NCBI GenBank assembly: GCA_027371715.1
Contig: DAHXMM010000022.1
Span: 1-32,000 of the forward strand
Direction: 5' to 3'
DNA: 32,000 nt
DNA from: Elusimicrobiota bacterium
GTDB taxonomy: Bacteria; Elusimicrobiota; Elusimicrobia; UBA1565; UBA9628
Position numbers and translations under genes: made by a program. Of the stretch, positions 7,007-32,000 are shown one piece after another (position 1 is the first letter of the stretch; each line of letters starts with the position of its first letter). Below the pieces are notes generated by a model. It had not been told where the DNA came from. It saw nothing but the letters and a program-made list of their open reading frames with translations, and did no database searches.

Positions 7007-7075
7007 GGATAGTTCAACGCTCGGCGTCTCTCACTTTTTATTATAACGCCGATATCTCGATTGTCAAGGGGTGTC

Positions 7076-7115
7076 GGATATCCCCGCCGCGTCTCTTACG
7101 GCGGCGGGGATGTCC
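7076..7115. repeat. 15-bp inverted repeat (strong hairpin) in the cusB-cusA spacer
   Basis: GGATATCCCCGCCGC (7076-7090) pairs with GCGGCGGGGATGTCC (7101-7115) around a 10-nt loop. The single imperfect position is a G-U wobble if read as plus-strand RNA, but an A-C mismatch as minus-strand RNA. Confidence 0.6.
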
Positions 7116-7122
7116 ATCGAGA

Positions 7123-7194
7123 TTGCGGGAGCGGGACTCGAACCCGCATCGGCCGTTTGAGAGACGCCCGTTCTATCGATTGAACTATCCCACA
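7123..7194 (-). tRNA. tRNA-like gene, candidate tRNA-Glu(CUC), with non-canonical features
   Basis: Hand-folded cloverleaf on the minus strand. Acceptor TGTGGGA/TCCCGCA (one G-U pair). U8 A9. D stem GTTC/GAAC. Anticodon arm GGCGT-CTCTCAA-ACGGC with U33 and anticodon CUC. 4-nt variable loop. T arm GCGGG-TTCGAGT-CCCGC. Discriminator A, no encoded CCA. Atypical points: U1-A72, a G-G mismatch at 28:42, and only one G in the D loop. Confidence 0.6.
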
Positions 7195-7250
7195 GTCTCT
7201 ACCTATCATACGGGCCAAGAGCCGAGAAAGTTCCATCCAGGAGCCGCTTC

Positions 7251-10200: not shown

Positions 10201-10457
10201 GACGACTCAATACCTTAAACGATCTCAAGGACGCGATTCACGACGGCGCGGCGAAAAGACTGCGGCCCAAGTTGATGACGGTTTCTTGCGCCTTCTTGGG
10301 ACTTTTGCCCGCGATGTTTGCTCACGGCGCTGGAGCCTCCATGATGAAAAGGATCGCCGCCCCCATGGTCGGCGGATTATTCACGTCCTTTCTGCTTGAA
10401 CTTCTCATCTACCCTGCGGTTTATCTTTTGTGGCGGAAAAATGAGATACAGGAATAA
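7251..10457 (+). CDS. cusA: heavy-metal efflux RND transporter, CusA/CzcA family (Cu/Ag type likely)
   Basis: 1068 aa with 12-TM RND architecture and an AGGAG SD upstream. Residues matching the CusA three-methionine cluster are present: ILYMPTT (M588), APLSMMETT (M638/639) and RIDMLSTG (M697). Confidence 0.92.
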   Translation: MISKIIEFSARNKFLVILLTLAASLGAFYAVQKMPLDALPDLSDTQVIVVSKWDQAPEVLEDQVTYPIVSALLGAPQVKAIRATNEFGISLVYVIFKDGTNLYWARSRVLEYLSKITAELPKGVKTEIGPDATSLGWVYQYALVDDSHTLDLPRLRALEDWQIRYQLQSVPGVAEVASIGGYQKEYQIKINPRALWSYGIPITRVLKAVAESNSERSGGTVEFSGREFMILGKGYLRGLKDIAQIPLGRDPKTGTPVLLKDVAILSLGPARRRGVADLNGLGDAVGGIVIMRSGENALNVIARVKAKIKEIAPSLPPGVRLVPVYDRSNLIHQSIRTLTETLAEEMLVVSLVILFFLWHFPSAIVPILTIPISIFLAFIPMSALGITTNIMSLSGIAISIGILVDGAIVEVENAYKRLEEWQASGRKGDFHEVRLKALSEVGPSVFFSLLVIAAAFLPIFALTGEEGRLFKPLAYSKTFAMALAAILAVTLDPAVRMLFTRMEGFNFKIPWIKKIADALLVGRYYPEEKHPVSQRLFKIYSPVVRWVLEKPKAVILSAIALLILSLPIFRSLGSEFMPPLNEGTILYMPTTLPGISITEAGRVLQIQDEILKSFPEVKTVYGKAGRADTSTDPAPLSMMETTVVLKPRKDWPNVSCFGGFWKCKSTYKQMISQMDQKLKIPGFPNIWTQPIRNRIDMLSTGMRTPVGIKIFGPHLSGIQDLGVQIEKTLSTVAGTREAVAERSAQGYYVNIHLNRRALARYNLSVDEANSVVAAALGGANLTTVIKGRERFPVNVRYAPDFRDNIEKIKETLIPISGGAQIPLAEIADIRKSLGPDMIRDENGELTGYVYVDLNTSNIGDYVQKAKAALQKSVSPPPGYRYEFTGQYRQMKKADQRLELIIPLALFLVILLLYFNTGSWMEAGIVLLAVPFSAIGAIWLLWILDYHLSVAVGVGFIALLGLDAETGIFMLLYLNLERKARASTGRLNTLNDLKDAIHDGAAKRLRPKLMTVSCAFLGLLPAMFAHGAGASMMKRIAAPMVGGLFTSFLLELLIYPAVYLLWRKNEIQE

Positions 10458-10490: not shown

Positions 10491-11147
10491 TCAATGTCCT
10501 TCCGCCAAAAGAAGCTCTCCCGCGTAAAGTCTTTTATTGTCGGAATTAAACTCATGCTTGACGTCAACCAAAAGCTTCTCCAGAGACAATATCTTCCAGC
10601 CCTGGCAATAATAGACGCCGGGACTCTTTTGGTTCATCTCCAAGGATAAAACAAAGTGATGGACGTCCTGGGTAATCTTAAAATCTTCCGAGGGGGAAAG
10701 ATAAAATGAACGCTGGGTTGTTTCCACATTTTTCCGATTAAACGTCTTGCATTCGAGATAATTACGGCGCTCGTTTTGGTCCACGAATTCCAAATCGGGA
10801 TAACCCGCCGACTTTGTTTTTCCATTTACTTGCGGCTTTCCCGCCTTCCTCGCCCCAGATTCGATGAGCGCCTTCTCCACAAAAGCTTCAATGGCATTGC
10901 CCACTTCATTGGGACGCCGACTTCTGATGCCCTCTTTATTGATATACCTTTTAAAGCTGTTTGAGCCGTCTTTTTCATCAGACGGCTTAAATGGAACCAC
11001 GCGATGGCCCGATAGAGATTCAATGACGAGCCGAAAGGGAACGTCCTTGAGAGGCTCAATCATATGTTTGACGATGGATTCGAGTCGCTGGACATAAACC
11101 GCGTCCGAGACGAGGCTTTCCCTATCCTTGGTCTTGGGATAATTCAC
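10491..11147 (-). CDS. type II restriction endonuclease candidate (PD-(D/E)xK fold)
   Basis: GYPDLEFVDQNERRNYLECKT gives P117-D118 ... E132-C133-K134, a classical PD-x13-ExK catalytic motif. The GTG start has AAGGAGG 4 nt upstream and overlaps the methyltransferase stop (GTGA). I recognise no other family. Confidence 0.65.
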   Translation of the reverse strand: MNYPKTKDRESLVSDAVYVQRLESIVKHMIEPLKDVPFRLVIESLSGHRVVPFKPSDEKDGSNSFKRYINKEGIRSRRPNEVGNAIEAFVEKALIESGARKAGKPQVNGKTKSAGYPDLEFVDQNERRNYLECKTFNRKNVETTQRSFYLSPSEDFKITQDVHHFVLSLEMNQKSPGVYYCQGWKILSLEKLLVDVKHEFNSDNKRLYAGELLLAEGH

Positions 11148-12481
11148 GGCGCCTCCTTGCGGAAAATAACAATGCGATTCGTATTCGTGCCCAGAGAATT
11201 ATTGCCGATGCCCCAGATATTCGACGTTTTCGTGAACCGCTGCTCGTTGACCATGACGCAAAGGCATTTAAAACCCGCGGATATTCCAACCGGAATGACA
11301 TAATCCTCGAGCTTAAGAGTTCCCTTGCGGATTTCGCCGACCTCGAAAGCGACATAGCCTCCAGGCATGGTCACTCGGAGCAAATCGCGAAAAACATCCT
11401 TCATCACGGACGCCCATTCCTTGACCGCCCGAGATATCGTTATTTTTGGAGAAATACTGGCGAAGTCAATTCCATTAAACCACAAGCGAAGCCAGTTATC
11501 CTTGGAGTATTCCACGATGTCAAGAAAAGGTGGAGAAGTCACCGTCAACTTCACTGATTCGGGTTCCACCTCCAAAACTTTTGCGGCATTGCGGCAGGCA
11601 AACAAGGCCTTCCGGGAAGCAAAATTCAACCGTTCGATATCCCTCAATGTCAAATCTTTCATTAGGGCTTTCGTTTTTTTGAGGATAATTTTTCGAATAT
11701 CCCTATATTCGGGAGTTTGATTTCTCTTCTCGTTGATTCGTTTTTGATCCTCTTGGGATGCCGCCTGATTGGGAGGAAGCGTATAGACGGAAAAAAATCC
11801 GCTCGAATGACCCGTCAGACGATTGGTCGCCGTCATCCGAATCCAACGATCAATATCATCTTCTTTTCCCTCGGTTTCTCTTTGATTGAGATAGGTTCTC
11901 AGGGAAACTATCTCGCTTTCCGTTATCGGGTGATAAAACATGCTTAAATCGATTTCCGCCCGTGACTTCCTATCCATTGGAATGGAATCCAAGCGCCTTA
12001 AAATTTGTTCCATGTCGGGGACGCGCAACCTTGGACGAGCCAATATTTTGCTCAGCGGATTTATGTCGTTTCCAACGGGAATGCGCCCCAAAAGCGCCGC
12101 CTCAATCGCGGTCGTCCCGCGTCCAAGAAACGGATCATAAACCCTGTCTCCCGGAAGAGTCAGGCGTTCAATAAAAAAACGCGGCAGTTGAGGCTTAAAG
12201 CAGGCGCGGTAGGACACTTCATGAACGGAATTGCCTTGCCTTTGGCGCGAAGTCCAAAATTCGCCTGTAAATACGGGGATATCAGCGCCTGATTTATTCC
12301 AAACGCCCAAGCGCGGGAGTTTAGACTCCAAAGGCGATTTATCGTCCAACCCCATCGCGGGTGAATTTAGAAATTCAAAAAACCAGCGGATTTCAGGGCT
12401 GACTTGCCCCTCTTTTTGAAGACTTAATTCCTGGCTAACTATCGGCGATCCAAAACTCATATTCATTTTAGTATACCACAC
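11144..12481 (-). CDS. site-specific DNA methyltransferase (N4-cytosine or N6-adenine; SPPF motif favours N4C)
   Basis: The AdoMet motif DPFLGRGTTAIEA lies at aa 116-128 and the catalytic motif TSPPF at aa 315-319. Motif I therefore precedes motif IV, separated by ~190 aa (alpha-like permutation). The gene is coupled to the downstream nuclease gene. Confidence 0.88.
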   Translation of the reverse strand: MWYTKMNMSFGSPIVSQELSLQKEGQVSPEIRWFFEFLNSPAMGLDDKSPLESKLPRLGVWNKSGADIPVFTGEFWTSRQRQGNSVHEVSYRACFKPQLPRFFIERLTLPGDRVYDPFLGRGTTAIEAALLGRIPVGNDINPLSKILARPRLRVPDMEQILRRLDSIPMDRKSRAEIDLSMFYHPITESEIVSLRTYLNQRETEGKEDDIDRWIRMTATNRLTGHSSGFFSVYTLPPNQAASQEDQKRINEKRNQTPEYRDIRKIILKKTKALMKDLTLRDIERLNFASRKALFACRNAAKVLEVEPESVKLTVTSPPFLDIVEYSKDNWLRLWFNGIDFASISPKITISRAVKEWASVMKDVFRDLLRVTMPGGYVAFEVGEIRKGTLKLEDYVIPVGISAGFKCLCVMVNEQRFTKTSNIWGIGNNSLGTNTNRIVIFRKEAP

Positions 12482-17432: not shown

Positions 17433-18176
17433 TCAAGGGCCGAAACCAAACCCCTTAAAAAGACTATCTTCCGATTGCGCGGCGGGAGCGGGAGTTTCTT
17501 TTTTCTTCTTCGGAGAAGCGGGAGAAGCCGCGGGCGGCAAGGTTCCCGGCAAGGGAGAAGCGGCAGAACCTCCGGACAAGCTTCGAACCGGCGCCACGAT
17601 CACTTTCCTGATTCCCTCGGCAAAAACAATCATCCCGGTTTTTTCCTCGTAATAAAGCCTGAAGGGACTTTGTTTCATCTGCGGCTCATAAGCTTTTCCG
17701 AGATTGGATTTTTCTTCCTCCCACCCTGGGTTATAGACCAATTTTCCCCTGACGTCTACAATGCCATCAACGATGGGCAGAGAAAAACGAATCCGATAAA
17801 ATCCGTTTGAATCGCTGACCCCCGGATCAAAAGAACTAACCGCCAAAGCTTTTTCGCCCGTGTCAAATTGATCTTGATTTTCCTGTCCCTCAGCCGAAGC
17901 CACCGCGCGAACAACCACTCCCTGAATCGGGTTATCCGCGTAATCGGTGATCACTCCCTGAATATAGCCATCCAAGAACTCACTTTTTTTCGGGAGAGAG
18001 AAGAAAACATAATCATTGACTCCCGTTAATTTCTCAGTAATGGAGAGATCCACCACACGTCCTTCGGCGAAATCTAAAACGACAATTTTGCGCGGAGCTC
18101 CTCCGCAACCCCAAAAGACAAGTCCAACCGCCAAGAAAAATAGCGCTAAATGGGCGCAGGTTTTTATTTTTTTCAT
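17433..18176 (-). CDS. lipoprotein with carboxypeptidase-regulatory-like beta-sandwich motif and a Pro/Ala/Lys-rich tail
   Basis: ATGA overlap with the upstream gene. Signal peptide plus lipobox (VFWGC). GVITDYADNPIQGVVVRAV...SDSNGFYRIRF resembles CarboxypepD_reg-type domains. The C-terminus is low complexity (PLPGTLPPAASPASPKKKKETPAPAA). Confidence 0.65.
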   Translation of the reverse strand: MKKIKTCAHLALFFLAVGLVFWGCGGAPRKIVVLDFAEGRVVDLSITEKLTGVNDYVFFSLPKKSEFLDGYIQGVITDYADNPIQGVVVRAVASAEGQENQDQFDTGEKALAVSSFDPGVSDSNGFYRIRFSLPIVDGIVDVRGKLVYNPGWEEEKSNLGKAYEPQMKQSPFRLYYEEKTGMIVFAEGIRKVIVAPVRSLSGGSAASPLPGTLPPAASPASPKKKKETPAPAAQSEDSLFKGFGFGP

Positions 18177-19315
18177 AAGAAAGAACGCCGGAAAACAATA
18201 GCCGCGATTAGAATCGGCAAGAGACTAAGGGAAAGCCACCACCAAGCCAAATTTTCAGAGTCGGAAAGAGGCGGCAATTGCTTAAACGCAAGCGCGTTTA
18301 ATTTAGTCCTTGAAACGCTCGAGTTGAGAACGGGAGAAAAAGAAACAAAGAAATTCCACTTCGGATTTAAATCGGAAGGAGTCTGAGAGCGCAAACTTTG
18401 ATAGACGCCCTTAACCTGGTCAAACAATGAAAAATCTAAAATCCGCCGGGAAACGGTCATCACAATTAAAACTGGAAATCGGCCGATTAAGGAAATATCC
18501 GAAAGGAGATGAGCCCCCAAGCCGTTTCCGACCTTATAAGATTGAGGCAAAGTTTCCCACGAACGCAAAAAAAACTTATTATTGACGTCTTCAGGGGAAG
18601 GAATTTTTCCAACCGGAGAAACAGCCGGGTCTCGCCCCTGAGAAACCGACGACGCATAGTTAGGGACAGTCCCTAATTCTTCTGTTGTTGGCTCCTGGTT
18701 TGTCTGAGATGGAAAAGCTAAATTCAGTAAACCGGTGGAATTGGGGACTGTCCCTAACTCTCCCCCGGACAAATGTCGTTTCGAGCGCTCCTGAGATTTT
18801 CCCTGCGACAAAAGCCGCCACAAATCATCGCTGATTTGGCGACCTTTTTCCAGCGATTTTTTTGCGCCGTTTTCCCAAGCCTTCAAGTTTTGGAGCGGTT
18901 TCTTAAGCTCGAGTTCTCGGCGCCGAATATTTTTTGATAAAGGAGCATTTTGACTCCGGGGCGAAAGAACGGAAGAACCGGGCGTCAAAACAGGCTCGAC
19001 GTTGTTGGCCAACGGATGAGTTTCAGGCGATTTCAAGGTTAAATTGGGAGAAACCGGCAACGCGAAAAAAACTCCCGAGGGAATTGTTTGAGGAAGAGCG
19101 GATGGAGAAAACCCCGGAGTTAAAGTCGGTGATATTCCAATATCCGAAGGTAAACCCGCATTTTGAGGCAAGGTCCCTAAATTATCGGCTCCCAAAAAAG
19201 CCATCGGCATAACGCCATTAGAGCCTACGATGTTCCGCGAAAAAGCTCCGGCATGGAGGTTTCCTTTAAAAAAACAAAGGGCCAAGACTATCAGCGCCGA
19301 CGTTTTTATGTTCAT
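18173..19315 (-). CDS. secreted Pro/Ser/Thr-rich protein with C-terminal TM helix and basic tail; function unknown
   Basis: N-terminal signal peptide (MNIKTSALIVLALCFFKGNLHA). Internal ELGTVPN repeat. The C-terminus is LAWWWLSLSLLPILIAAIVFRRSFL. The gene starts 9 nt after the giant gene's stop, and the AAGGA SD-like motif lies immediately 5' of its ATG. Confidence 0.6.
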   Translation of the reverse strand: MNIKTSALIVLALCFFKGNLHAGAFSRNIVGSNGVMPMAFLGADNLGTLPQNAGLPSDIGISPTLTPGFSPSALPQTIPSGVFFALPVSPNLTLKSPETHPLANNVEPVLTPGSSVLSPRSQNAPLSKNIRRRELELKKPLQNLKAWENGAKKSLEKGRQISDDLWRLLSQGKSQERSKRHLSGGELGTVPNSTGLLNLAFPSQTNQEPTTEELGTVPNYASSVSQGRDPAVSPVGKIPSPEDVNNKFFLRSWETLPQSYKVGNGLGAHLLSDISLIGRFPVLIVMTVSRRILDFSLFDQVKGVYQSLRSQTPSDLNPKWNFFVSFSPVLNSSVSRTKLNALAFKQLPPLSDSENLAWWWLSLSLLPILIAAIVFRRSFL

Positions 19316-19324
19316 TCCTTAGAA

Positions 19325-22300
19325 TTATAGAACATTCTTTCTCCGCTTTTTCTTCTTAAAAAGCGTTCCGAGAACTCCCGCCGCGGAGCCAAGGAAAAGC
19401 ATGATTTTAGCGGCATAGGATAAAATCTTATCTTTAAGCGAAATCGCCGCATGCGGAATAAAAGAAACCTGAAGGGCGGGTTCTAGTTTTTCCAAGCGGC
19501 GAATGTAACGCCGCCACCAAGAAACCTGGCGCGTCAAGGCCGCATCTCGCGCCCGGTCGGATTTGAGGCGAGATTCGACTTCCTGTTGTGAAAGGACCCG
19601 AATTTCCCGTCCATAAACGTCTTCATGAAGCCGATCCGCCGCGGCTTTGACGCTTGAGTCCTGGGCCGCAGTTTCCTTTCTCATGCGCTCAATTTCAAGT
19701 TGTTTTTTCTTAAGACTCGCCAGGTCCTTTTTTCTCAACGGGAGTTCTTTCTCTGTTTGATTGACGTATCCATGAACCTCTTTGGAATCGGATTGATACT
19801 CTTGCGCCCCGGCTTCAATATGAACCGTTTTCTGCGCGCGGTTGACCCAAATATCCTCGGGATTTCCCGACAAAACGATTTTCCCCGATCCATCAGCCCG
19901 CGGAGACAAGCCCACCTCCTTATCGCTTAAAGCTTTCGCCAAGGCTTCCTCGCCCACAGACCCTTCTTTTTTAGATTCCTCATAGGTTTTTCTCCGGCCC
20001 TGCATCTCGTTAATGACAAACTCAGACACTCCTCCGTTAAAATGAGCGAGGGTCCTCAAGCGCGCGGCATTAATGTCTTCCTGGTAATAGCGAAGGAGTC
20101 GCTCTAAAAACAGAGCGCCAAAATGAACATTCGCATCTTTATAACGTCCGCTTAAAGACGCTTCGCTGTCTCCGGGCATGAGAGTCGAACGCCCGACGCG
20201 CAAATCAGACGGGAATTGGCTTAAATCGTAGTAAGGAGTGACCGGGTCCGGAAGAAAGTTAAGCACATCCAAGGCCCCCGCGATATTGCGGAAAAACCCG
20301 TGGTGTTCCGTCTCTCCGCCTTCAGTCTTATACATCGCGACGCGCCCAAGATAATGCTGAAATCTTGGATCTCGCCCCGCCCACTCCACGGGGAAACCCA
20401 CGATTTCGCGCGGGACCTCCATGATCAAACTTCCCCAACGCCAAGGCATCACGCCCCAGTATTTTTTGAACGGAAGATGGGAGGAAACGTTTTGAGCGCT
20501 CTTTTCCAAATAGCGCTGATTCAAAAGAACGGGTAATTCATCGATTCCTTCCTTCGACAAACGAGCCTTAATTTCGAGGGCAATGCGCTTCGCATAATCT
20601 TCCGGGCTTTCACCCTGTTTGCTTGGCATATCTTTCTTAACCGCGGCGGAAACCTTGGTTATTTCCTCTTGGATTTGACCTTGAGTCTGCCCCTCCCGTC
20701 CCACCCAAACTTCATAATGACTGACGCGCAAACCAGGGTTGAGCGTTTTTGCCTTCGCGTTAAATATGTTTTTCTTGCCGTCGATCGTCTTTGACTTCAA
20801 TGTCCAGGACTTGGCGGCCTGATCCATTCCCGAAGAACTGGTATAGTATTGTCTTAAGCGCCCTTCTGAATCCATGACGGCGGCATAAATCGGCCCGCGC
20901 ACATAGACGTCGGCTCTTTGAGGCGACAAGCGATCGTTCAAGACGGAACGGCCGTAAACCGGGGAAGCTTGGGCATGAAGAACCGTTCCACGGGAATCCA
21001 ACCCCAAAATCAAATCGCGGCTGCGGTAAAGACTCCAAGTTTTCGAGCGCTCTTTAATGGTATTGGCCTCTTTCACTTGTTTCTTGGCGTCCGTAAACAC
21101 CGCTTTCTGGAGTTTCAAATTATCGCGAGCCGTATCCAATTTTTTGGATAAGAAGCTGACGCGTTTTTGAGCGTCTTTATACTGGCCGTTAGAAGATAAC
21201 TCCTTCTTGGTTTCTTCGCCTATCCGTTGAGCGTAGTTCGCCGCCAATTCCTTGTTTTTCCGCGGATACCTCTCGAGAACTTTCTCTTTGATGCTTCTCT
21301 CCACCTCGTTTTCGGCCCGCACGGCTTCCAGCATTATTTTCTGAGCTTCTTTTTCCTTTTTATCCGACTCTCCCAGATCTTTCGCGGCCTTAATGAGGCG
21401 AATCTGCGCTTCCTTAATCCCCCCATCCGCATCCGAGAACGCTTTTTTAGCCGCGTCGAAATCATCCCGGCTGAGATAAACGTCCGAAACTTCTCCTTTT
21501 TCATTTCTCGCGAAACCATATCCCGCTAATTTTAGCTCCGCGTATCCGGCCCGAAGTTCCGCTTGGCGCCTGGTCTCGAAGAAATCCATCAAATCTCCGG
21601 CTCCTTTTTTGGAAAGATAGACTCGACTGAAATCTCCCTTTACAGAAGAAGCCTTGAGAGATTCGAGAGTCTGGAACTTATCCGAGGGCAAAGCCGTTTT
21701 TCCGGTATAGACATAAATTTCGTATTGATCCGGCGACCTCGCCCAAGCCGCCAAGGCCGGCAACCGGTAATGCAAAAGCCCTGGGTTCTTAGAATTGAAA
21801 GCCTCGAAGAAAAGAACCTTTCCGTTGCTTAAAAGGCCTTGGGCCCCGAAAAGTTCTTGAACGGAATAACCCTTTTGGCCGTCCTCCGAGGCAAAATCAT
21901 ATTGACTCAGGCGTTCCGCCAAATTGATGACGCGAGAATCGTCCTTGACGCCGCTATTTGCTTCTAGTTTTTGCCGCTCGAAAGCGTCCGCTCCCCTGAC
22001 GAACTCAACTTTCATATTCGATTTAAGGAAATAGCGCCCACCCACATCGACGATTTGATCGTCCCCCTTATACGCGGGAGAGGCGCGTTTGGCGAGTTCC
22101 TCTTGAGTCAACCAACCCTCCACCGCCCACAAACGGCGGCCGTCCTTATCCACGCGGGTTTGGGCGTAGAGCGGATACAGTTTGGAACCGTGCTTAAGCC
22201 AATCGGCCCTCTTATTTTCCAATTCGGAGATTTTGAGGGCGACGGCGTTGATGGACTGCTCCGAGCGCCCTTCCCATCGTTCGGCAAAAAGACGGGATTT

Positions 22301-25300
22301 TTCAAGCATAATCAAGGCGTCCAAGGCGAGAATTCCGCGCCCGGATTCTTTGGAATCAATCTGGCGATCAAGGCTCTTGTGAACGTCATAGAGAGCGTCG
22401 AGCGTGCGAATGAGTTCGGCATTTCCTTGAACCTCTTTTAGGTCCAAGGTTCGGATTAAATCCTCGTCAAAAATCTGCTGGGCCTTGAGATAATCGTCCA
22501 AAAGCCCGTCTTTCAAGATAAAATCGTCGTTTTTCAAGGGCGAGGCGAAATAAGAATCAATCAACGCGGCCTTGGACAAATCTAATTGTTGATGATCCGC
22601 TTCAAGAGACTTAAACGCGGCTTCGGCTCTTGGAGAAACGGCGACCGCATTCCAATACGCATTGCGAAGTTCCAAGGCGGCCTGGGAATATTCAGTCCGT
22701 TTTTGCTCGCTTGAACCTAGCTCCCGCTCCAAATCTCGGCGCAAAAACCCAAGCTGCGGATCTTTATTTTCAATCTCGGTTTTTAACGCCGCAAGGCTGA
22801 AAATCAAAAGATTTCTCTTTCCGCGAGCGTCATTTTGGGCCAAAAGGCGAAGTCTTTCTTCCGATGAAAAATCTTCCGCCGTAACATCCTTGGAATCTCG
22901 AATGGCGGTGCGGTAAAGGCGTGCCACCGAATCGACGGAATCAATTAACTGCTGGGAAATTCCCAAACCGTGGAGATAGCGATCCTGTCGAATTATAAAA
23001 TTTGGATCTTCCATGCGGTCCGCCCAATATCCCAGGAGTCCGCGTTCGGAGGGATTTTTAGGCAAATTAAGATCGCCCGAAGCCCGTTGTTTTCCCAAAC
23101 TGAGATTTTTAAGCGAGAGAGCCGTATCGGAGGATTGGCTTTCCTTTCCCAGGGCTTTTAGTTCCGCGACTAAGGAAACGAAATTAGATTTTAAATCCGC
23201 CGACTGAACAATCAATTTTTCCTGGGCTTGAATTAAATTTTTCCGGGCGTCCAAAACGTCTTGATGAGCCTTGAGCGAACCGGATTCATGCGCGGCGGTC
23301 CAGTCCTTCTGTTTCAAATCGTCAATAGCCGCGGCCAACAAACGGCTGTCGGCTTGAACTTCTTTCATTCCGCCGGAAACGCGGGTCATTTGAGTATAAA
23401 GAACCATCTCTAGCTTCTCGAACTGCCCCTGGGCCTTGAGCTGTTCGCGAATGGAATCAGACAATATATTGGTCAACCCGCGTTCGATTTCCTGCGGGTC
23501 GGGGGCTTCCAAAAATCCGCCAAAAACAGGAGTTCCGCGGAAAATGCCGAAAGCCGCAATCGGCGTAATTCCTTGATAACTCATGTGTTCGGACAAAACA
23601 TCGGCCCGGATTTGATCCATGAAAACGTCCTTATCATGACTGGGCCCCAAAGCGTCCAAACCAAGGATTTTGGCAATGCGCGCTTTTCCCTCCGGAGAAG
23701 CAATCTCTTGAACCAAGCGAGGCTCCCCTCCGGAAAATTCAGCGCCCGAGGCTTCCGGAACCAGCTTCGACAGCAAACGCAAGCGATCCTCCGCGGTCTG
23801 TCCCTGAGCCTTTGAAAGCCCCAACAGCGCCCAAATTTCTTCCGCTTGAGAGAAGGTTTTTTGGCGAACGGAATCAATCATTCCCGTCCAATCGACCCCG
23901 GTTTCCTTGCTCTGATGCGATTGAACCCATTTGAGAAAACGGACATTTTCCGCGAAAGCGGCCAGCTCCGCGTCCGCCAACGCCGCCGCGCGCTCGCGCG
24001 CGATTTGATCTAAGCGGTCAGCCTTATCCTCGGATAATTTGGCCAAGGCAATCAAATCCGGTTCCGGGGTACCCTTGCTTTTAAGGCGCAACTCAATCCA
24101 CGGTTCCAAAAAGCCTCGGTTAATCGGAGTTTCATCGAGAGTTTGCCGCGCGTAAAAATAGCGCATGAACATCTCCGCCGGAGCCTTGTCAAAACCAGGC
24201 GCGGGAATGGGGGGCAAGGAATCCAAGCGGGGAACGCGAGCCACTTTTTCCTCTCCGTCAATCAGACGACGTCTGAGAGCGGCGAAGCTATCGGGCATCG
24301 AAACGGAATGAGCTGAACTCCCCGAATCAACTCCAAGACTGAGAAGAGATGCTTGAATGACCGCCTTTTGTCCTTTTAACTCTTCCACCTTGGCCAAGCT
24401 AAAAGGATCTCCCTTGGCGGACAAACTCTGAATCTCGGAATCGAGCATTTGAAGCCTGACCTGGTCGCGCGCGCGGAGATTCGCCAAATGAGAATCGAAC
24501 GAATCTTGTTGCCTTTCTTCCGTCAAAAGCCTGAGACGCGCCGCCATCACTTTATCGGCGCGCCCCGAATCTTCCTCCGAAAGCGCGCTAATCAGGCGTC
24601 CGATAGTCCGAGCCGTCAAGGAAATTGGATCAGCCGAGACGTCTTGTACTTTCAAGTTTTTATCCACCATCTTTTGATAGGCCTTGGCCACTTGGACGCG
24701 CGCCTGAAAAATGGTCTTTTGGGCCGCGACCAAATTCTGCTCCTTAAGCGTTTCTTGAAGCTGTTGGTAAGCCTTTTCCGGAGAGATGTCAATGGACAAG
24801 ACGGAATCCGCCGGTCGCCCCATCAAGACGTTGAGCGCCGAATGAGCCTCGTCGTTGGTTAAAACCATTTGAGCGCGCGACAATTTCGCGTTAAAAATTT
24901 CCTTTTTAATTTGGCTGACTTTCGCACGATCGCCGGAGGACTCAGCCCGGGACAATTCCCTTTGAAGCGCGGGAAGCGCCTGTTGGTCGATTTGAGCGAT
25001 GGCCGATTGCGCGGCCTTGGCCTCGACGATATCCTGATACATTTGAAGGGCCGTCTCGACTTTGAGCTTGGACTCCAAGGCCCCGTAATAGGCGGACTGC
25101 CCCTTGTCGGCCTTGACTTGCAGTTCTTTAAGTTCTTCCGGCTGAAAGCGGGCTCCTGGAATCGGCAGAATCGGAAATCCGGTAAAGCCGAAAGAAGGCA
25201 AAAACCCGGTGCCGGTCGCGGTCAAATCCACTCCGATCATCAAATTAATCCAAAATTTTTGAGTGACATGATTGTCGGCTTTCGCCAATGCCTCAAACTC

Positions 25301-28300
25301 TTCTTGATGAAGAGCCAAGGCTTCCAAGGATGAGTTCTGAAACGCGGTTTGAATGGCCCCGCTTAAATCCGAAACGCTCATCGGCGGCGCCATGGAATGA
25401 GATTTTCCTCCCACCGCCTCATCCATCGCGGCCCAAGCTCCGGCGGAAGCGGCCTGTGATTGAGAATTGACGGTCGCCCGAGCGTTCAAATTCCATAGGT
25501 TGATGGCTTGTCTCAATTCGCTTCTTGAAATTAAACCGTTGCGATAGGCTTTAATAGCGAATTCTAGTTCGCTGCTGGTCTGAGGAAGAGCCGCGGTCAT
25601 TTCCCCCGCCGTCTGTCCCCAGACGTCGGCTTCACGGCGTTCATTGCTTGCCAACAGACGGTATTGGGAATGGATGTCCTCCATTTCCTTGATATCGGCC
25701 TGGCTTTTGAGCAAATAACTCTTGTTTTTATCTTTTGAGGATGGGTCATAAAAAGGAAGCCTTAAGGTTCCGCCCATGCCGAAAATCTGCCCTGCCATCA
25801 AGTCCTGGATTTGAGTTCCGATTCCGAAGGTAAATTGATCGACAAAGGGAATCCAATCCATGATGTTGAAGCGGTCTTCGCCAATACGATCTTTTAGAGA
25901 TTTTTTATCCAAGGACCCAAGAATCTTTTTGAGGCGGTCGGGAGCGGCCACGAGGGAATGAATCTCCTTGACTAAGTTTTGAACGTCGGCGAGATTTAAG
26001 TCGTCAAACGGAGTCGGAGAAGACGGGTTTTTCCCGGCCATGATATTGTAGCGGACCCGCGCCTCGCTTAATTTCTCAGATGCCTCCGCCATCTGCGCCT
26101 GGGCCTTTCCCTTTTCAATGACGGAAGAAGCGTTTTGGAGCAAAAACGCCGCGCGCTGAACGGCAACCCGCGCCTTGACGATTTGAAGAGCGCTCTCTTC
26201 CCAGTCCTTGGTCAATTGAACCAAGCGAGACTGAAGCAAAAGACCGTTTTTATAAAGAGAAACGACTTTATTGTCTAAAAGCCCCTTTTGCGTCTTGGTC
26301 AAAGTCACCATAGTCTCGGTCCCGCTCATGAAACCTCCGGTGGCGGCCAGTTCCGCCGGGTCGTTGGAAACGGGGCCCGAGACAAAGCCGGCGTCTCCCA
26401 CCACCTTGACGTTGTCTAAAATCGCGCCCGCCGAACGCAAGTCCTTGATGTCGTGGTCCAAGGTTCCGATTTTCTGTTCAATGAGCCTTCTACCCACATC
26501 CTTGGCGAAAACCGCTTTAAGCTCGTTGAGATCTTTTTGGCCTTTTTGGGGTTTAAGAAAAGCCCCCATGCGCTTTTGATAGCCCTTGAGCGCTTTCCCA
26601 CCGTTTAAATCATCCGCGGCGCTGCGGGTCACTTCATTCCATAATTGAGAAAGACTGGCCGAGGTATTAAACATCAAGGACAAGCGGTTGTTATAGCCGA
26701 CAAACGGAGAACCGTATCCAACCGACACCTGCGTTCGGTTGGTCAGTTGCTTGCCGATCTGCGCATAATAAGCGTCGGCGGGCCCCAGCATTTGCCCCGT
26801 CGCGCTAAAAACAATTCCATTTTGGGGAAGCTGCACCGACAACTGATCAATGGCGATGTTATACTGCTGTCCCAACTCCCCGGTCGCGGTGTTGGAGATT
26901 CGAACCAAATCCACCGGCCTTCCCGAACTGTCCTGACCGCGAATCGTAAATCCCTTTAAAATCGTCGTGCCCAGGGTTTGCTGCGTAATATCGTAAGTAC
27001 CGGCGTAATTGGCGTAATAAAGGTCAACGGTAAACGGATTACTATCATCCTTAGAAACGACTCCCGATTGTTTAAGAAGAGAAGCCACGTCGAATGTCGG
27101 CCCGATTTTGGTCTCATAAAAATTCGCGCTTTTTCCGTGCGCGGCGATATCGAAGGTTTGGTTCAGACTCGGGTCAAGGCCCGTGAAGTCGAGATTGGCG
27201 GTCTCAAAAAATTGCCGCGGATCTTTCGCGAACAAAGCCTGCTGGTCGGCGTTTAAGCTCATGACCGGAGTCAATTGAATGGAGGTTTTGGCGTTTCCTC
27301 CGTAATAGTACGGTTGATTGGCGGAATTTTGCGCCGCCGCATCTCCAAAGCCCGTCAAACCGACGTAAAGTTTTCCATTCATTAAAAGCATCGCGTAATC
27401 ATTAAAGAGAAGAAGGCGGCTTTCATTGGCTTGGGACGCAAACGACATATTCGGGGGAACGTCCAGAATGTCGTGATGGATAATCGCCTCGAAATAATTG
27501 ACGTTATTTTTGCGCAAAGTCTCGACTTGAACGCCGACGCCCTTGTCTCCCCAAGGCGCGTTCGAGGCCCCGCCGGTTTCCGGCGGGGAATAGGTGTCGT
27601 AAGCCATGACGCTTAAATTACTTCCCATCACATGGGCGACGTTACCCAAGGTCACTTGATTGGTCGAACTCAAGCCGTAAGGAACTCCAAATCCTGTTTG
27701 ATAAACCAGATAAAAACCGTCCGCGGAATCCCCCAAATTCATGACCTGCGCTCCGGGGATGAGTTGTGCGATGTTTTGGGGATTGGCGAGAATGCTTTGC
27801 CCCAAGGCCCCGATGTCGGCCGAGGAGGCATTGGCTCCGCCGGACAAACTTGAAAGGATGTTGTTGACAAAATCGGGAAAATTCGATTTTTTAATCACCA
27901 AAGCCGAAGCCCCGGAGGATGAATTGAGTCCCATGCCCCAGCCGGAATCGCTCAGATGAAGGGAATCAAATTCCTGCTTAATCTGATTGGGAACGCGCGC
28001 CCATTCTTCATCCGTTAAACTTAAGCGCAAGTTGATGAGCTCTTTTTGTTTATCCCCGATTAAATCCATATCCGCTCTCAAAATGCGGTCGGCGCGGGAT
28101 AGATTCTCTTTGAGCAAGGTCCACTTATGATTGGCCTCAAGAACCTTGCGGGTGTCATCCTGAATCTGGGAAATCGCATGCGAGGTTTGGTGTAGCGCGC
28201 TGTCGTAAGGGCTATTGAGTTGTCCCATCCATGACAAAAGTTCGGATTTCGTGCTATTCAAACTGCTCATCGTGTTTTGAAGCGCCGTCATCATCGAATT

Positions 28301-31300
28301 CATCGCCGTCAAATCGCCCTGATCAACGGTGACCCCCGAGCCGTAAACCTGATTAGCCATGGCCTGATAATAGGTGGCGAGGAGGTTTACCGTCCCTAAA
28401 GACCCGGGATCGTATTGACTAATCTTGATATTGTAAAAATTGATTCCCTCTTGGAGAACGGACTGCAAAGAATTGAGCATCGCGATTTGATTGGCGTAAA
28501 CCGTCGCGGTTGGGGGGCTATTGCCACCTGAGTTGATGTAAGCCTCGTCCTGCTTTAATTGCGCTTGAGCGCTGTTTAAAGCGGCGGTTGCATCATTTAA
28601 GAATTTTTCAGCTTGGGGAATCTCGGTCGCGAGTTCCTGCTGGGAGCTCTGAACCGTCGAAAAGGAATAGAGAAAGCGCGCGATTGAGAAAGAAATCGAA
28701 GGAGAATTGGCGCTGCTTCCGGATGACGGCGCCAAGATTTTGGCCGCGTCCAAGGCCAAAAGGGCCAACTGTTGAGCGTTAGAAACGGTCGGAGACGGCT
28801 GATGACCGGTTTGAACGGCGAGACCGCCCCCGCCGCCCACATTAATTGAAGACGCTGAGCCCGCTTGGGCCGCGATATTTTTCAGCTCGGAAGCCAAACC
28901 GGTTAAATTCCCGTTGTTAGTCACGGAGAGAGAATAAATCTGATTATAGCCCGCTTGACTCGCCGCGACATTGGTCGGCAATTGATAGGACGAAAGATTG
29001 TATTTCCCGCCCGACAAGGTTTGGATTTTCGTTAGGATTTGGTTAAGTTGCGCATCTTGATCGTTGATTTCCTTGACGCGCTGATCCATTTCAGTCGTGT
29101 AAAGGGTAATTTTTTTCGGGAGGCTGTATGGCCCGCCGCCGGGATAATTACTGTCCTTCAAATAATCTACGGTCTCATTCCCATTAAAATTCGGGTCTTT
29201 TCTCTCGTTGACCTGAGTCAGATTCGTTGAAACCGTCTGTTGAAGATTGGTGAAATTGGTCTGCCAAGATTGCAAACTCGACAAACTGCTGGCGGTGTTT
29301 CCGGAACTGCCGCCTAAAGAGATCAGCCCCCAAGGAATGGTTTTATCGTTGAGTTGTTGAGTTTGGGTAATCAGAGAATTTTCCGCGCTAAAAAGCTCTT
29401 GATAAGCTCCATTGGAAGACACCTGCTGAATGGAAGACTCTTGATAGGGAATGAGCGTGTTTTCCAAGGCGTTTTGAATGTTGTTCAGAGGCGAGATAAT
29501 GTCGTTTTGAAGCAAATTTTCCTTGCGGTTAATAAGCGCCTGCACCGCGTTGGTCGGGGGATTGGCATTGGCATTGGGATATTGGGCCACGAAAGCCTGA
29601 TCGGCCCCAACATCGTTGATGATATTTTGCACCATGTTGACGGCCTGCTTCATGGCGGTCTGGGCTTGGGGAACGGTACCTCGAAGCGCGCTTTGAATGG
29701 TCGTCACGGTCGTCTGGGCCTCGCTTCCTTGAATGACCAGCCAAGCCGCCTGCGGCAAGAGAGAAGCGATTTTCACCAAATCCAGGGAAGCCTGAAAAGC
29801 CTGGGGTGTTCCGTTATTGGGTATCTGTGCGTTTTGAAGAGCCGTTCCATAATTTTGAACCGCGGTTTGGAGTTGGGTCAGAGTCAAACCCGAAAGCCGG
29901 GGCAAGCTCGGCCCTCCAGCCTGACTGATTTGGTTGGCCATTTGATCCATTTGAGAGGTAATGGAGTTAATGGATGATTGCGCTTGGCTCAAGGTTTGGC
30001 TCGCTTGGGCTTCCCAAACCGGCAAAGACTGAGGATAAGAACGCCCAAATTCATCGGTCACCATCGTCTGATTATTGGGGTCTAACATCGCCGCGACCGA
30101 GTTAAGGTCCTTTTGAAAAGTATTGAGTTGCCCTTCCCAGTAAGACTTTCGCGCGCTTAAAATTTCGCTAAAGCTCATCGAGTTGGAAATGCCCGGGCCG
30201 CCCGGAACGTCTTTAATAATGACTGGCCAGGCTTGAGTAGGCGCCGTCTTAATTTCGCTGAGGCCATTCTGCGCTGATTGAAGATTGGTCTGGACCTCGG
30301 TCAAGATATTTTTAAATTCCTTGAGCGAAAATGCCGAGGGATTGTTGGGATTTCCGTTCGTACGCCATTGAGACACCTGTCCCAGTTCCTGCAAACGCAG
30401 TTGAAACTTCGCCTCCAAAGCCTGCGCCTCGGAATCAAAACTTCCGCTCGTAACTCCTTCATGAGAGGCAATGGTCGCCATAACCGAGGGAAGCGCGCCT
30501 TTGACGGAAGTGAAAACTTGGACCGCGGAAGAAGCTTCGCTAAAATCGGAAGAGAGTTGATTTTGTTGGGTTTGATCGGCCTGGGTCTGCTGAGTCGCTT
30601 CCTGCTGCCATTGCGGAAGATTAGACTGCGCCTGTTGAGCTGCCGCTTGGTTTTGTTGCGACAAGGTCTGGGACTGGTCTATTTTCTGGATGTTGGTATT
30701 CAAAAGACCTTCCATCCCGCTGATCGCGTTTTCCGCCGCGTTAATTTCGCGAAGGCCTAGAGCGAAATCCATGACCGCCGAAACCTGGGAAAGGCCTTGA
30801 ATAAAATTCATCATATCCTGCCCGTTCCGGCGATTATTCAGAGCGCTCTCCCGCGCCTTGGAAACGACTTCAAGCACTTTTCCAGTCGCGTCCCGCATTT
30901 TCATCTGGGCCGCGGCATTGGTTCTGAGAGTTCTAATCTCCTTCACCAAGTTTTCGATTTTATGATCCACCTTCAAATCTTCGGGGGAAAGGGGACGTTC
31001 GCTCGGGACGTTTCTCCCCACCTTGCGGTCCAGATTGCTCAATACGGACTTGATCATTCCAGGACGAATTTCCTGATCCTCGGCATAACCGATGCGATTC
31101 TCCGGGCCTCTGCGTTTTTTTGCATCCATCGAAGACAGATCTTTCAGTTTTTGCTTCAATTCGTGAAGATGTTGGTCTGAATTTGAGGCAGGACGGCTTA
31201 AATCATGGTTTTCTGAAAGCTTTGAACGGACATAACGCTCGTTTTGAGCCTGTCGTAATTTGGCCAACCGCGCTCGATAGGCCTTGATTTCACCCGGGGT

Positions 31301-31963
31301 CAAAGGCCGGTTTTGAGTTTTGAGCGCCGCCTCGTCTTTATGAACCGAGGCCAAATCTTTTTGAAGCTTCAGTTCTTGCGCGCGCGCGGCTTTCATCTCG
31401 TCCTTAAAATTTCCCGCCGATTTCTCAAGTTCTTTAAGGCGAGCGTCTATTTCCTTGGGAGTTTTTTTGTAAAGCTCGGAGTCAAACGGAATCGGCTTAC
31501 TGGGAGCGGAAGCCGCCGCTACCACGCCCGCGGCCGCAGCGCCGGCGGTACGGGAGTTGAGAGTGTGCATGACCGCGTCCGACAAGTTAAATCCCAAGGC
31601 CGATTCAACTTTGTAGAGAAGGACATTCCCCCAGGTAATCGCTCCACCAAAAGGAATCACGCTTTGACCTTTAGGGGCTTCAAACGCCGAGAAAAGGCCG
31701 TGAAAGCCGTGAAAGTCGTGCCCCGTAACCGCATGCCAAGAAGGAGTCAGGCTTGTATCAATCTGGGCTCCGTAGGAAAGAATTCCTTGAATCTCGGAAC
31801 CGACGGTCAAAAGCCCCAGGAAAAACTTAAGGTCCTGCCAAATGAAGAATTTCCAAAACTCGCGCGCGAAAACGGCCGAGGCCATGGCCTGGGTCCAACT
31901 TACGGAATCTTCGGGATGTTCGGCTTCAAGACGCCGGCGATGCCAATCCACCGACTGGGGCAA
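19325..31963 (-). CDS. giant multi-domain envelope/surface protein (at least 4212 aa), cysteine-free, with embedded TolC-like module and C-terminal membrane anchor; 5' end probably outside window
   Basis: Single uninterrupted 12.6-kb frame. The tracked start is a TTG, but the same frame stays open for 12 more sense codons (ILNTFILSTIFT) to the window edge. Composition and segment motifs are described in the findings. The antisense ORFs inside it look like shadow ORFs. Confidence 0.85.
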   Translation of the reverse strand: MPQSVDWHRRRLEAEHPEDSVSWTQAMASAVFAREFWKFFIWQDLKFFLGLLTVGSEIQGILSYGAQIDTSLTPSWHAVTGHDFHGFHGLFSAFEAPKGQSVIPFGGAITWGNVLLYKVESALGFNLSDAVMHTLNSRTAGAAAAGVVAAASAPSKPIPFDSELYKKTPKEIDARLKELEKSAGNFKDEMKAARAQELKLQKDLASVHKDEAALKTQNRPLTPGEIKAYRARLAKLRQAQNERYVRSKLSENHDLSRPASNSDQHLHELKQKLKDLSSMDAKKRRGPENRIGYAEDQEIRPGMIKSVLSNLDRKVGRNVPSERPLSPEDLKVDHKIENLVKEIRTLRTNAAAQMKMRDATGKVLEVVSKARESALNNRRNGQDMMNFIQGLSQVSAVMDFALGLREINAAENAISGMEGLLNTNIQKIDQSQTLSQQNQAAAQQAQSNLPQWQQEATQQTQADQTQQNQLSSDFSEASSAVQVFTSVKGALPSVMATIASHEGVTSGSFDSEAQALEAKFQLRLQELGQVSQWRTNGNPNNPSAFSLKEFKNILTEVQTNLQSAQNGLSEIKTAPTQAWPVIIKDVPGGPGISNSMSFSEILSARKSYWEGQLNTFQKDLNSVAAMLDPNNQTMVTDEFGRSYPQSLPVWEAQASQTLSQAQSSINSITSQMDQMANQISQAGGPSLPRLSGLTLTQLQTAVQNYGTALQNAQIPNNGTPQAFQASLDLVKIASLLPQAAWLVIQGSEAQTTVTTIQSALRGTVPQAQTAMKQAVNMVQNIINDVGADQAFVAQYPNANANPPTNAVQALINRKENLLQNDIISPLNNIQNALENTLIPYQESSIQQVSSNGAYQELFSAENSLITQTQQLNDKTIPWGLISLGGSSGNTASSLSSLQSWQTNFTNLQQTVSTNLTQVNERKDPNFNGNETVDYLKDSNYPGGGPYSLPKKITLYTTEMDQRVKEINDQDAQLNQILTKIQTLSGGKYNLSSYQLPTNVAASQAGYNQIYSLSVTNNGNLTGLASELKNIAAQAGSASSINVGGGGGLAVQTGHQPSPTVSNAQQLALLALDAAKILAPSSGSSANSPSISFSIARFLYSFSTVQSSQQELATEIPQAEKFLNDATAALNSAQAQLKQDEAYINSGGNSPPTATVYANQIAMLNSLQSVLQEGINFYNIKISQYDPGSLGTVNLLATYYQAMANQVYGSGVTVDQGDLTAMNSMMTALQNTMSSLNSTKSELLSWMGQLNSPYDSALHQTSHAISQIQDDTRKVLEANHKWTLLKENLSRADRILRADMDLIGDKQKELINLRLSLTDEEWARVPNQIKQEFDSLHLSDSGWGMGLNSSSGASALVIKKSNFPDFVNNILSSLSGGANASSADIGALGQSILANPQNIAQLIPGAQVMNLGDSADGFYLVYQTGFGVPYGLSSTNQVTLGNVAHVMGSNLSVMAYDTYSPPETGGASNAPWGDKGVGVQVETLRKNNVNYFEAIIHHDILDVPPNMSFASQANESRLLLFNDYAMLLMNGKLYVGLTGFGDAAAQNSANQPYYYGGNAKTSIQLTPVMSLNADQQALFAKDPRQFFETANLDFTGLDPSLNQTFDIAAHGKSANFYETKIGPTFDVASLLKQSGVVSKDDSNPFTVDLYYANYAGTYDITQQTLGTTILKGFTIRGQDSSGRPVDLVRISNTATGELGQQYNIAIDQLSVQLPQNGIVFSATGQMLGPADAYYAQIGKQLTNRTQVSVGYGSPFVGYNNRLSLMFNTSASLSQLWNEVTRSAADDLNGGKALKGYQKRMGAFLKPQKGQKDLNELKAVFAKDVGRRLIEQKIGTLDHDIKDLRSAGAILDNVKVVGDAGFVSGPVSNDPAELAATGGFMSGTETMVTLTKTQKGLLDNKVVSLYKNGLLLQSRLVQLTKDWEESALQIVKARVAVQRAAFLLQNASSVIEKGKAQAQMAEASEKLSEARVRYNIMAGKNPSSPTPFDDLNLADVQNLVKEIHSLVAAPDRLKKILGSLDKKSLKDRIGEDRFNIMDWIPFVDQFTFGIGTQIQDLMAGQIFGMGGTLRLPFYDPSSKDKNKSYLLKSQADIKEMEDIHSQYRLLASNERREADVWGQTAGEMTAALPQTSSELEFAIKAYRNGLISRSELRQAINLWNLNARATVNSQSQAASAGAWAAMDEAVGGKSHSMAPPMSVSDLSGAIQTAFQNSSLEALALHQEEFEALAKADNHVTQKFWINLMIGVDLTATGTGFLPSFGFTGFPILPIPGARFQPEELKELQVKADKGQSAYYGALESKLKVETALQMYQDIVEAKAAQSAIAQIDQQALPALQRELSRAESSGDRAKVSQIKKEIFNAKLSRAQMVLTNDEAHSALNVLMGRPADSVLSIDISPEKAYQQLQETLKEQNLVAAQKTIFQARVQVAKAYQKMVDKNLKVQDVSADPISLTARTIGRLISALSEEDSGRADKVMAARLRLLTEERQQDSFDSHLANLRARDQVRLQMLDSEIQSLSAKGDPFSLAKVEELKGQKAVIQASLLSLGVDSGSSAHSVSMPDSFAALRRRLIDGEEKVARVPRLDSLPPIPAPGFDKAPAEMFMRYFYARQTLDETPINRGFLEPWIELRLKSKGTPEPDLIALAKLSEDKADRLDQIARERAAALADAELAAFAENVRFLKWVQSHQSKETGVDWTGMIDSVRQKTFSQAEEIWALLGLSKAQGQTAEDRLRLLSKLVPEASGAEFSGGEPRLVQEIASPEGKARIAKILGLDALGPSHDKDVFMDQIRADVLSEHMSYQGITPIAAFGIFRGTPVFGGFLEAPDPQEIERGLTNILSDSIREQLKAQGQFEKLEMVLYTQMTRVSGGMKEVQADSRLLAAAIDDLKQKDWTAAHESGSLKAHQDVLDARKNLIQAQEKLIVQSADLKSNFVSLVAELKALGKESQSSDTALSLKNLSLGKQRASGDLNLPKNPSERGLLGYWADRMEDPNFIIRQDRYLHGLGISQQLIDSVDSVARLYRTAIRDSKDVTAEDFSSEERLRLLAQNDARGKRNLLIFSLAALKTEIENKDPQLGFLRRDLERELGSSEQKRTEYSQAALELRNAYWNAVAVSPRAEAAFKSLEADHQQLDLSKAALIDSYFASPLKNDDFILKDGLLDDYLKAQQIFDEDLIRTLDLKEVQGNAELIRTLDALYDVHKSLDRQIDSKESGRGILALDALIMLEKSRLFAERWEGRSEQSINAVALKISELENKRADWLKHGSKLYPLYAQTRVDKDGRRLWAVEGWLTQEELAKRASPAYKGDDQIVDVGGRYFLKSNMKVEFVRGADAFERQKLEANSGVKDDSRVINLAERLSQYDFASEDGQKGYSVQELFGAQGLLSNGKVLFFEAFNSKNPGLLHYRLPALAAWARSPDQYEIYVYTGKTALPSDKFQTLESLKASSVKGDFSRVYLSKKGAGDLMDFFETRRQAELRAGYAELKLAGYGFARNEKGEVSDVYLSRDDFDAAKKAFSDADGGIKEAQIRLIKAAKDLGESDKKEKEAQKIMLEAVRAENEVERSIKEKVLERYPRKNKELAANYAQRIGEETKKELSSNGQYKDAQKRVSFLSKKLDTARDNLKLQKAVFTDAKKQVKEANTIKERSKTWSLYRSRDLILGLDSRGTVLHAQASPVYGRSVLNDRLSPQRADVYVRGPIYAAVMDSEGRLRQYYTSSSGMDQAAKSWTLKSKTIDGKKNIFNAKAKTLNPGLRVSHYEVWVGREGQTQGQIQEEITKVSAAVKKDMPSKQGESPEDYAKRIALEIKARLSKEGIDELPVLLNQRYLEKSAQNVSSHLPFKKYWGVMPWRWGSLIMEVPREIVGFPVEWAGRDPRFQHYLGRVAMYKTEGGETEHHGFFRNIAGALDVLNFLPDPVTPYYDLSQFPSDLRVGRSTLMPGDSEASLSGRYKDANVHFGALFLERLLRYYQEDINAARLRTLAHFNGGVSEFVINEMQGRRKTYEESKKEGSVGEEALAKALSDKEVGLSPRADGSGKIVLSGNPEDIWVNRAQKTVHIEAGAQEYQSDSKEVHGYVNQTEKELPLRKKDLASLKKKQLEIERMRKETAAQDSSVKAAADRLHEDVYGREIRVLSQQEVESRLKSDRARDAALTRQVSWWRRYIRRLEKLEPALQVSFIPHAAISLKDKILSYAAKIMLFLGSAAGVLGTLFKKKKRRKNVL

Positions 31964-32000
31964 GGTAAAAATGGTCGAGAGAATAAAAGTATTTAATATG

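Follow-up and report, generated by a model that had tools for sequence, protein, structure and literature searches.

TolC-type ducts are free-standing trimers of proteins of about 450 residues, which dock transiently on separate adaptor and pump proteins. In canonical members of this outer-membrane efflux protein (OEP) family, the homotrimer forms a 12-stranded beta-barrel and a 12-helix tunnel, the H3 and H7 helices of TolC are about 67 residues long each, and both ends of the chain are on the periplasmic side. The closest described case to the one reported here is Bucl8 of Burkholderia pseudomallei/mallei, whose collagen-like region is reportedly a C-terminal extracellular extension. Bucl8 is described as an outer-membrane factor with a collagen-like region, encoded in a putative efflux operon (PMC7682875). 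The giant adhesin LapA is retained inside its TolC-like pore (bioRxiv 10.1101/198937). In this study, we analyzed a TolC/OEP-like module that lies in the middle of a giant protein encoded in a 32,000-nucleotide stretch of DNA from an uncultivated Elusimicrobiota bacterium (contig DAHXMM010000022.1, positions 1 to 32,000; hereafter the window). The module had been proposed from the letters of the window alone (the sequence-only reading). We find that a conserved, duplicated TolC unit sits in an exported family of giant proteins which, as far as named members show, is restricted to the Elusimicrobiota.

Like TolC/OEP proteins (PF02321; E. coli TolC, CusC and OprM), the module is predicted to repeat a beta-hairpin, a long descending helix and a return helix. 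It carries an "LP.YD"-type motif at the strand-helix junction, its first-half-type repeats are closed by an "L..LLGRP" motif, and its predicted fold matches 43 solved family members, with long helices of 66-68 residues. Unlike them, it does not stand alone as a protein of about 420-500 aa but lies inside a longer chain, preceded by about 2,300 aa and followed by about 1,650, and it has four half-repeats per chain instead of two; moreover, the window protein is below Pfam detection, and adaptor or pump genes are not adjacent to its gene. Bucl8 shares with the giant the plan of a TolC-family outer-membrane protein with a large extra region fused to its OEP domains. However, Bucl8 has the usual two OEP domains and a putative efflux operon, whereas the module of the giant is central and duplicated, with thousands of residues on each side and no pump operon. 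The LapA-LapE type I secretion adhesin system is similar in that it, too, brings a giant envelope protein into physical association with a TolC-like pore, but LapA and the pore LapE are two distinct proteins, and export of LapA depends on an ABC transporter, while the pore-like module and the giant described here are one polypeptide with a Sec signal.

The giant gene lies at 19325-32000 on the minus strand, and its 5' end is cut by the window so that 4,212 codons are visible. Residues are numbered here from nt 31963 (aa 1, minus strand, window numbering), as in the list of open reading frames (ORFs), which gives this ORF as 19325-31963 with 4,212 aa. The TTG at 31963 is not the start of the gene: the frame is open as far as nt 32000, it aligns with a 4,664-aa orthologue (L001) from residue 517 of the latter onward, and a gene call on contigs identical to the window gives a full-length product of 4,727 aa. 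The roughly 515 N-terminal residues beyond the window comprise a signal peptide, a Pro/Gly/Ser-rich region and a hydrophobic cluster. In the full-length giant, the module is therefore flanked by about 2,300 aa on its N-terminal side and about 1,650 aa on its C-terminal side. The figure of about 1,900 aa given for the former by the sequence-only reading was too low, as the ORF runs past the end of the window.

Homology to TolC is most evident when the family, not the single protein, is compared. A family profile (42 diverse members; effective number of sequences, Neff, 4.75) was aligned by hhalign with an alignment of 81 CusC/TolC homologues, and three registers were obtained: window aa 1895-2188 with OEP columns 115-403 (probability 95.6%, E 1.2e-8, 274 columns); aa 2058-2387 with columns 74-405 (94.4%, E 8.7e-8); and aa 2198-2523 with columns 22-347 (93.0%, E 3.5e-7). 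From one register to the next, the shift is about one half-repeat, which is what TolC half-repeats arranged in tandem would produce. When only six orthologues at about 85% identity were used, the probability was 27%. The true OEP profile scored 77.3 (P 1.2e-8) against the family, as compared with 29.1 (P 0.014) for the reversed OEP profile and 19.5 or less (P 0.2 or worse) for eight column-shuffled profiles, and a scan of the whole giant with equally deep family profiles gave P 0.013 or worse outside aa 1895-2412. As all of these controls score far lower, the OEP resemblance exceeds what chance would give. When 23 members were scanned singly against Pfam, OEP was found in four (best E 1.3e-7) and was the sole Pfam family matched by more than one member; the distant member P0153 passes the Pfam OEP cut-off (28.7 bits vs 22). 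In the reciprocal direction, a hidden Markov model (HMM) built from family aa 1986-2390 gave canonical TolC-family proteins up to 27.5 bits (median 6.6), and reversed decoys 2.2 bits at most. A significant OEP/TolC profile signal thus exists at the family level, and these profile comparisons show the module to be a homologue, highly diverged, of TolC-type outer-membrane factors.

The structure of aa 1780-2620 was predicted by AlphaFold2 from a multiple sequence alignment (MSA) of 23 giant-family sequences, without templates and without canonical TolC. The resulting model (mean predicted local distance difference test score, pLDDT, 72.9; predicted TM-score, pTM, 0.69) contains the same unit four times over: ascending helices lead into a beta-hairpin, after which come a long helix and a return helix. 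Hairpins are predicted at aa 1852-1889, 2043-2072 and 2234-2273 (segment residues 73-110, 264-293 and 455-494). In the four half-repeats, R1 to R4, the long helices have 53, 66, 68 and 52 residues and the return helices 28, 39, 35 and 23. When the model was compared with the PDB by Foldseek, the top 43 matches were all TolC-family proteins (TolC, CusC, SilC, OprM, VceC, CmeC, OprN and MtrE), with a best E of 5.2e-5 and a target-normalised TM-score that reaches 0.61 across some 430 columns; helical proteins unrelated to this family had E values above 0.1. The model differs from a generic coiled coil in that beta-hairpins are followed by helices of 66 and 68 residues, and it shows the module to have the TolC fold. 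R1 plus R2 and R3 plus R4 each match one TolC protomer, which makes the module, as modelled, a tandem duplication of a whole protomer.

According to the model, the Foldseek matches and hhalign, the module of four half-repeats, or two tandem protomer equivalents, spans aa 1809-2542 (24338-26539, minus strand). The sequence-only reading had placed it at 24644-26326 with two half-repeats; the location holds, and both half-repeats are real and are the best supported ones (R2 and R3), but the predicted structure extends further and has four. All four half-repeats are delimited by the AlphaFold2 model and lie on the minus strand. R1 (aa 1809-1975; 26039-26539) has an ascending helix, a hairpin, the 53-residue helix and a return helix ending in YNIMAGKNP, which corresponds to the "LxxLLGRP" motif of the OEP first half; its profile support is modest (aa 1896-1984 with OEP columns 116-205, P 0.003). 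R2 (aa 1991-2185; 25409-25993), the first copy of the sequence-only reading, consists of short helices, the hairpin QFTFGIGTQIQ...GGTLRLPFY, the 66-residue helix and a 39-residue return helix ending in AVG. Its aa 2043-2182 align with the second half of OEP (columns 258-397) at P 1.5e-7 by hhalign, and its RLPxYDP motif is nearly invariant across the family. R3 (aa 2200-2380; 24824-25366), the second copy, has ascending helices, the hairpin FWINLMIGVDL...FGFTGFPILPIPG, the 68-residue helix and a return helix ending in LNVLMGRP; by hhalign, aa 2199-2388 match the two OEP halves at P 1.5e-7 and 4e-6. The Pfam OEP match of P0153 (its aa 2062-2202) falls approximately on R3, as extrapolated from the alignment. 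In R4 (aa 2395-2542; 24338-24781), ascending helices, the 52-residue helix and a return helix accompany a degenerate or uncertain hairpin, VQDVSADPISLTARTIGRLISALS, where a short strand and a helix are predicted (pLDDT about 41). This hairpin segment is conserved in the family as EPVSL..RSLGRL, and the OEP signal of R4 is weak (aa 2413-2455, P 0.03).

Both R1 and R3 end in the first-half motif "L..L.G[RK].P", and their ends align with each other in family profiles (P 1e-4), the only pair of half-repeats to do so; self-comparison by hhalign for internal repeats, using a shallow alignment, found nothing. A fifth and a sixth half-repeat, which would make a single-chain pseudo-trimer and for which ITPIAAFGIFRG...LVAELKALG is suggestive by eye, were unsupported (P 0.09 or worse against OEP and R3).

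The peptides on which the sequence-only reading was based are all in place. In the giant, GGTLRLPFYD... is at aa 2064-2096, EFAIKAYRNGLISRSEL... at aa 2134-2165 and AAMDEAVG at aa 2178-2185, while the peptides of the second copy, FLPSFGFTGFPILPIPG... and ALNVLMGRPADSVLSI, are at aa 2254-2294 and 2376-2391. The CusC peptides are also as quoted, at CusC aa 282-309, 352-381 and 395-400. The segments of the giant and CusC that had been paired by eye are the same as those paired by profile-profile alignment. The resemblance to TolC/CusC that had been noticed is therefore confirmed, and its interpretation as a TolC module is supported.

The family was defined by an exhaustive HMMER search of 1.84 billion representatives with aa 1376-2575 as the query. 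It found 94 family proteins (cluster representatives), 59 of them with E below 1e-30, and they are without exception giants, the longest of 5,940 aa, or pieces of giants cut off at a contig end. Most relatives can be aligned across the entire 1,200-residue query, with 24-47% identity, and five metagenome-assembled genomes of Elusimicrobia, picked up in a genome scan, encode orthologues that are 84-87% identical. All full-length members examined share a core of about 1,350 residues (aa 1300-2700), module included, and the module is thus conserved in the homologous giants. Every organism-named member is from Elusimicrobia or Elusimicrobiota. Product names, where given, are "hypothetical protein" with two exceptions. 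One is MBI2071126.1 (P0153), a 3,776-aa protein of an Elusimicrobia bacterium that matches the window segment at E 8e-19 with 26% identity; it belongs to the same giant family, has its OEP match near R3, and lacks the hydrophobic cluster and the C-terminal anchor described below. The sequence-only reading knew of no such architecture, and the literature searched indeed holds no description of the giant family, of P0153, or of any giant with a TolC unit inside it. However, as NCBI labels MBI2071126.1 "TolC family protein", the architecture is not wholly new to databases. The other exception, P0087 (JGI/IMG, 4,644 aa), is named "exonuclease VII small subunit", which is evidently spurious and coiled-coil-driven.

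Full-length relatives begin with a Sec-type signal peptide. Members of the main subfamily also have a Gly/Pro-rich hydrophobic stretch at about aa 430-510 and, as revealed by a hydropathy scan, a C-terminal hydrophobic helix with a Lys/Arg tail, whereas those of the distant subfamily have the signal peptide only, without the hydrophobic cluster and without the C-terminal anchor. In the window protein, the C-terminal helix is ILSYAAKIMLFLGSAAGVLGTLF (19358-19426, minus strand), followed by KKKKRRKNVL; its sequence and the hydropathy scan make it a candidate inner-membrane anchor. The composition of the giant is sharply split: aa 400-1200 are 38-42% Q/N/S/T and 8-14% charged, and from the module to the C-terminus (aa 1800-4212) charged residues account for 22-36%. 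The 4,212 visible residues include no cysteine. Directly N-terminal to the module is a low-charge domain (aa 1340-1770; 26654-27946, minus strand) that appears beta-rich by eye and is strongly conserved across the family, the distant subfamily included; it had no Pfam match and no sequence-profile match in the PDB.

On balance, we lean toward the view that a single polypeptide forms an envelope-spanning assembly in which the module is the built-in outer-membrane duct or anchor, rather than a shared exit duct of efflux pumps. The amphipathic hairpins would insert in the outer membrane jointly with the hairpins of other chains, and the helices of 66-68 residues would project a shaft of TolC length, about 100 Å, into the periplasm. 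The flanks of about 2,300 aa and 1,650 aa may hang from the periplasmic end of this shaft, as the chain ends of TolC do, and members of the main subfamily would be tied to the inner membrane by the C-terminal transmembrane helix and the positive charges of its tail. The distant subfamily lacks this anchor, and the core function of the family must therefore be something other than tethering to the inner membrane. A more far-reaching proposal, which we offer tentatively and think probably goes too far, is that one Sec-exported polypeptide spans the diderm envelope by means of its own tandem TolC module at a non-canonical stoichiometry and its C-terminal inner-membrane helix, as a self-contained, Elusimicrobiota-specific duct or tether. 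For example, two chains could supply six good hairpins, or three chains could form a wider barrel. If this is true, a self-contained trans-envelope duct or tether would replace the three-protein architecture of known TolC systems.

A number of observations weigh against a TolC-derived duct or anchor of this kind. Pfam scans of the whole giant, of a 621-aa segment and of nine overlapping slices (370-430 aa) gave no OEP match at E up to 10, so that the Pfam check proposed in the sequence-only reading was negative for the window protein, and the same sequences gave nothing relevant in NCBIfam. BLASTP against the window CusC returned only short fragments (E 0.05-0.07), which nonetheless fall on the segments paired in that reading; phmmer of the window protein against PDB sequences found no TolC, and hmmsearch with the family profile missed the TolC sequences of the PDB. 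As to the predicted structure, the hairpin regions have low pLDDT (35-68), the fourth hairpin position (aa 2439-2462) is modelled at low confidence as a short strand and a helix instead of a hairpin, and four half-repeats per chain fit poorly onto the canonical barrel of 3 x 2 half-repeats. The distant subfamily is without the C-terminal anchor, the N-terminal half, rich in Q/N/S/T and poor in charge, would suit surface exposure too, and membrane insertion, channel formation and the periplasmic placement of the flanks are steps that we infer. In addition, our own OEP HMM gave the window protein only about 4 bits, and single-sequence AlphaFold2 gave an unusable model (pLDDT 43). A word-indexed homologue search with the segment found no match either, though the identical giant and its relatives sit in public collections; as this identical 4,727-aa giant and these relatives exist, we treat that negative as a limitation of the tool, whose negatives are untrustworthy for very long proteins. 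Taken by themselves, the direct tests on the window protein would have refuted the TolC idea. With the single-sequence model as poor as it is and the giant helix-rich throughout, they would fit a long coiled-coil protein, unrelated to TolC, that resembles it by chance or convergence. We regard this explanation as largely refuted and highly improbable: the profile-profile match has P 1.2e-8, as opposed to 0.014 for the reversed profile and 0.013 or worse for other helical parts of the giant; curated Pfam OEP is matched in four members, above the cut-off in P0153; the reciprocal HMM separates 27.5 bits from 2.2 for decoys; and hairpins are predicted where expected in a model whose top 43 fold matches are exclusively of the TolC family. 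The practical lesson is that the module is invisible to standard single-sequence annotation, and emerges only with family profiles or structure prediction.

Two other explanations accept the TolC ancestry and differ as to what the module does. The giant could be a self-displayed surface protein, whose module is its own outer-membrane pore or anchor, with the N-terminal half presented on the cell surface, via this pore or alongside it, as a giant adhesin or fibril. Precedents tie extensions or giant adhesins to TolC-type pores (Bucl8, PMC7682875; LapA, bioRxiv 10.1101/198937). The composition of aa 400-1200 (38-42% Q/N/S/T, only 8-14% charged), the lack of cysteine in the visible protein and the failure to find pump genes nearby also agree with surface display. 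Nevertheless, since both ends of a canonical TolC chain are periplasmic, the N-terminal half would somehow have to get through the outer membrane, in the main subfamily the C-terminal anchor together with a hydrophobic cluster close to the N-terminus suggests that both ends are at the inner membrane, and adhesin-type domains were not detected in Pfam scans; we consider surface display possible but rather unlikely. More doubtful still is a TolC-derived strut without an open channel, in which three or four hairpins (6-8 strands per chain) would anchor a rigid periplasmic spacer in the outer membrane, so that the protein acts as a tether or ruler. Four half-repeats per chain with one degenerate hairpin, the shorter helices of R1 and R4 (53 and 52 residues) as compared with R2 and R3 (66 and 68), the absence of transporter partners nearby and the C-terminal membrane anchor of the main subfamily would all suit a strut. 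Yet the strongly conserved R2 and R3 still have amphipathic hairpins and helices as long as those of TolC, which is what one would expect of a real barrel and tunnel, and the distant subfamily has no inner-membrane anchor.

Concerning possible partners, no HlyD/membrane-fusion, ABC or RND gene was found beside the giant in the window or at three divergent loci (range L006-L014), a survey that covered the neighbourhood only. The stand-alone CusC-type outer-membrane factor that served as the comparator is separate from the giant, at 4602-5855 on the plus strand, and is a bona fide one (Pfam PF02321, E 8.3e-28). It is the first part of a complete CusCBA-type heavy-metal efflux operon at 4602-10457 (plus strand), in which CusB has HlyD_D23 and the heavy-metal-binding HMBD motif and CusA matches ACR_tran at 3e-217. 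CusBA has its own CusC, which speaks against the module as the partner of this pump.

Directly downstream of the giant are two genes on the minus strand, at 18173-19315 and 17433-18176. The product of the former is a secreted protein of 380 aa, with a signal peptide, a middle part rich in Pro and Ser and a hydrophobic helix at the C-terminus, and that of the latter is a 247-aa probable lipoprotein (…VFWGC…); neither has a Pfam domain. An assignment of the downstream genes as an adaptor and an ABC transporter proved wrong, as the two unannotated genes are followed by those for cysteine desulfurase and MnmA. L002, the only close orthologue locus that was looked at, has the same two-gene arrangement, and distant loci have, at the same position, proteins of similar size with a signal peptide and a C-terminal helix. 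Because no homology is detectable between the downstream genes of the window and those of the distant loci, no conserved partner has been identified. At two loci (L013 1-3278 and L014 1-6728), a second very large gene, encoding at least 2,993 aa and at least 2,447 aa, respectively, lies a few kilobases upstream of the family member, with one to four small genes in between; these second giants have no Pfam match and no BLAST similarity to the giant of the window.

Elsewhere in the window, a probable type II restriction-modification pair at 10491-12481 (minus strand) consists of an N6/N4 DNA methylase (445 aa) followed by a protein of 218 aa for which the precomputed annotation gives a match to Pfam MjaV. 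The gene at 1549-3384 (plus strand) encodes a protein of 611 aa in which a DCC1-like thiol-disulfide oxidoreductase domain is joined to the two lipase-maturation-factor domains, LMF1 and LMF1_C. The LMF1 name is best known from eukaryotes.

A conserved, phylum-specific family with a duplicated TolC unit inside a protein of about 4,700 residues would change the picture of TolC-type ducts as free-standing proteins. It raises the questions of what barrel is formed by a chain with four half-repeats, how a barrel flanked by thousands of residues is inserted by BAM/TAM, and whether Elusimicrobia use the protein as a conduit, a tether or a surface-display device. If our interpretation is true, the TolC fold is a unit from which much larger envelope machines can be built.

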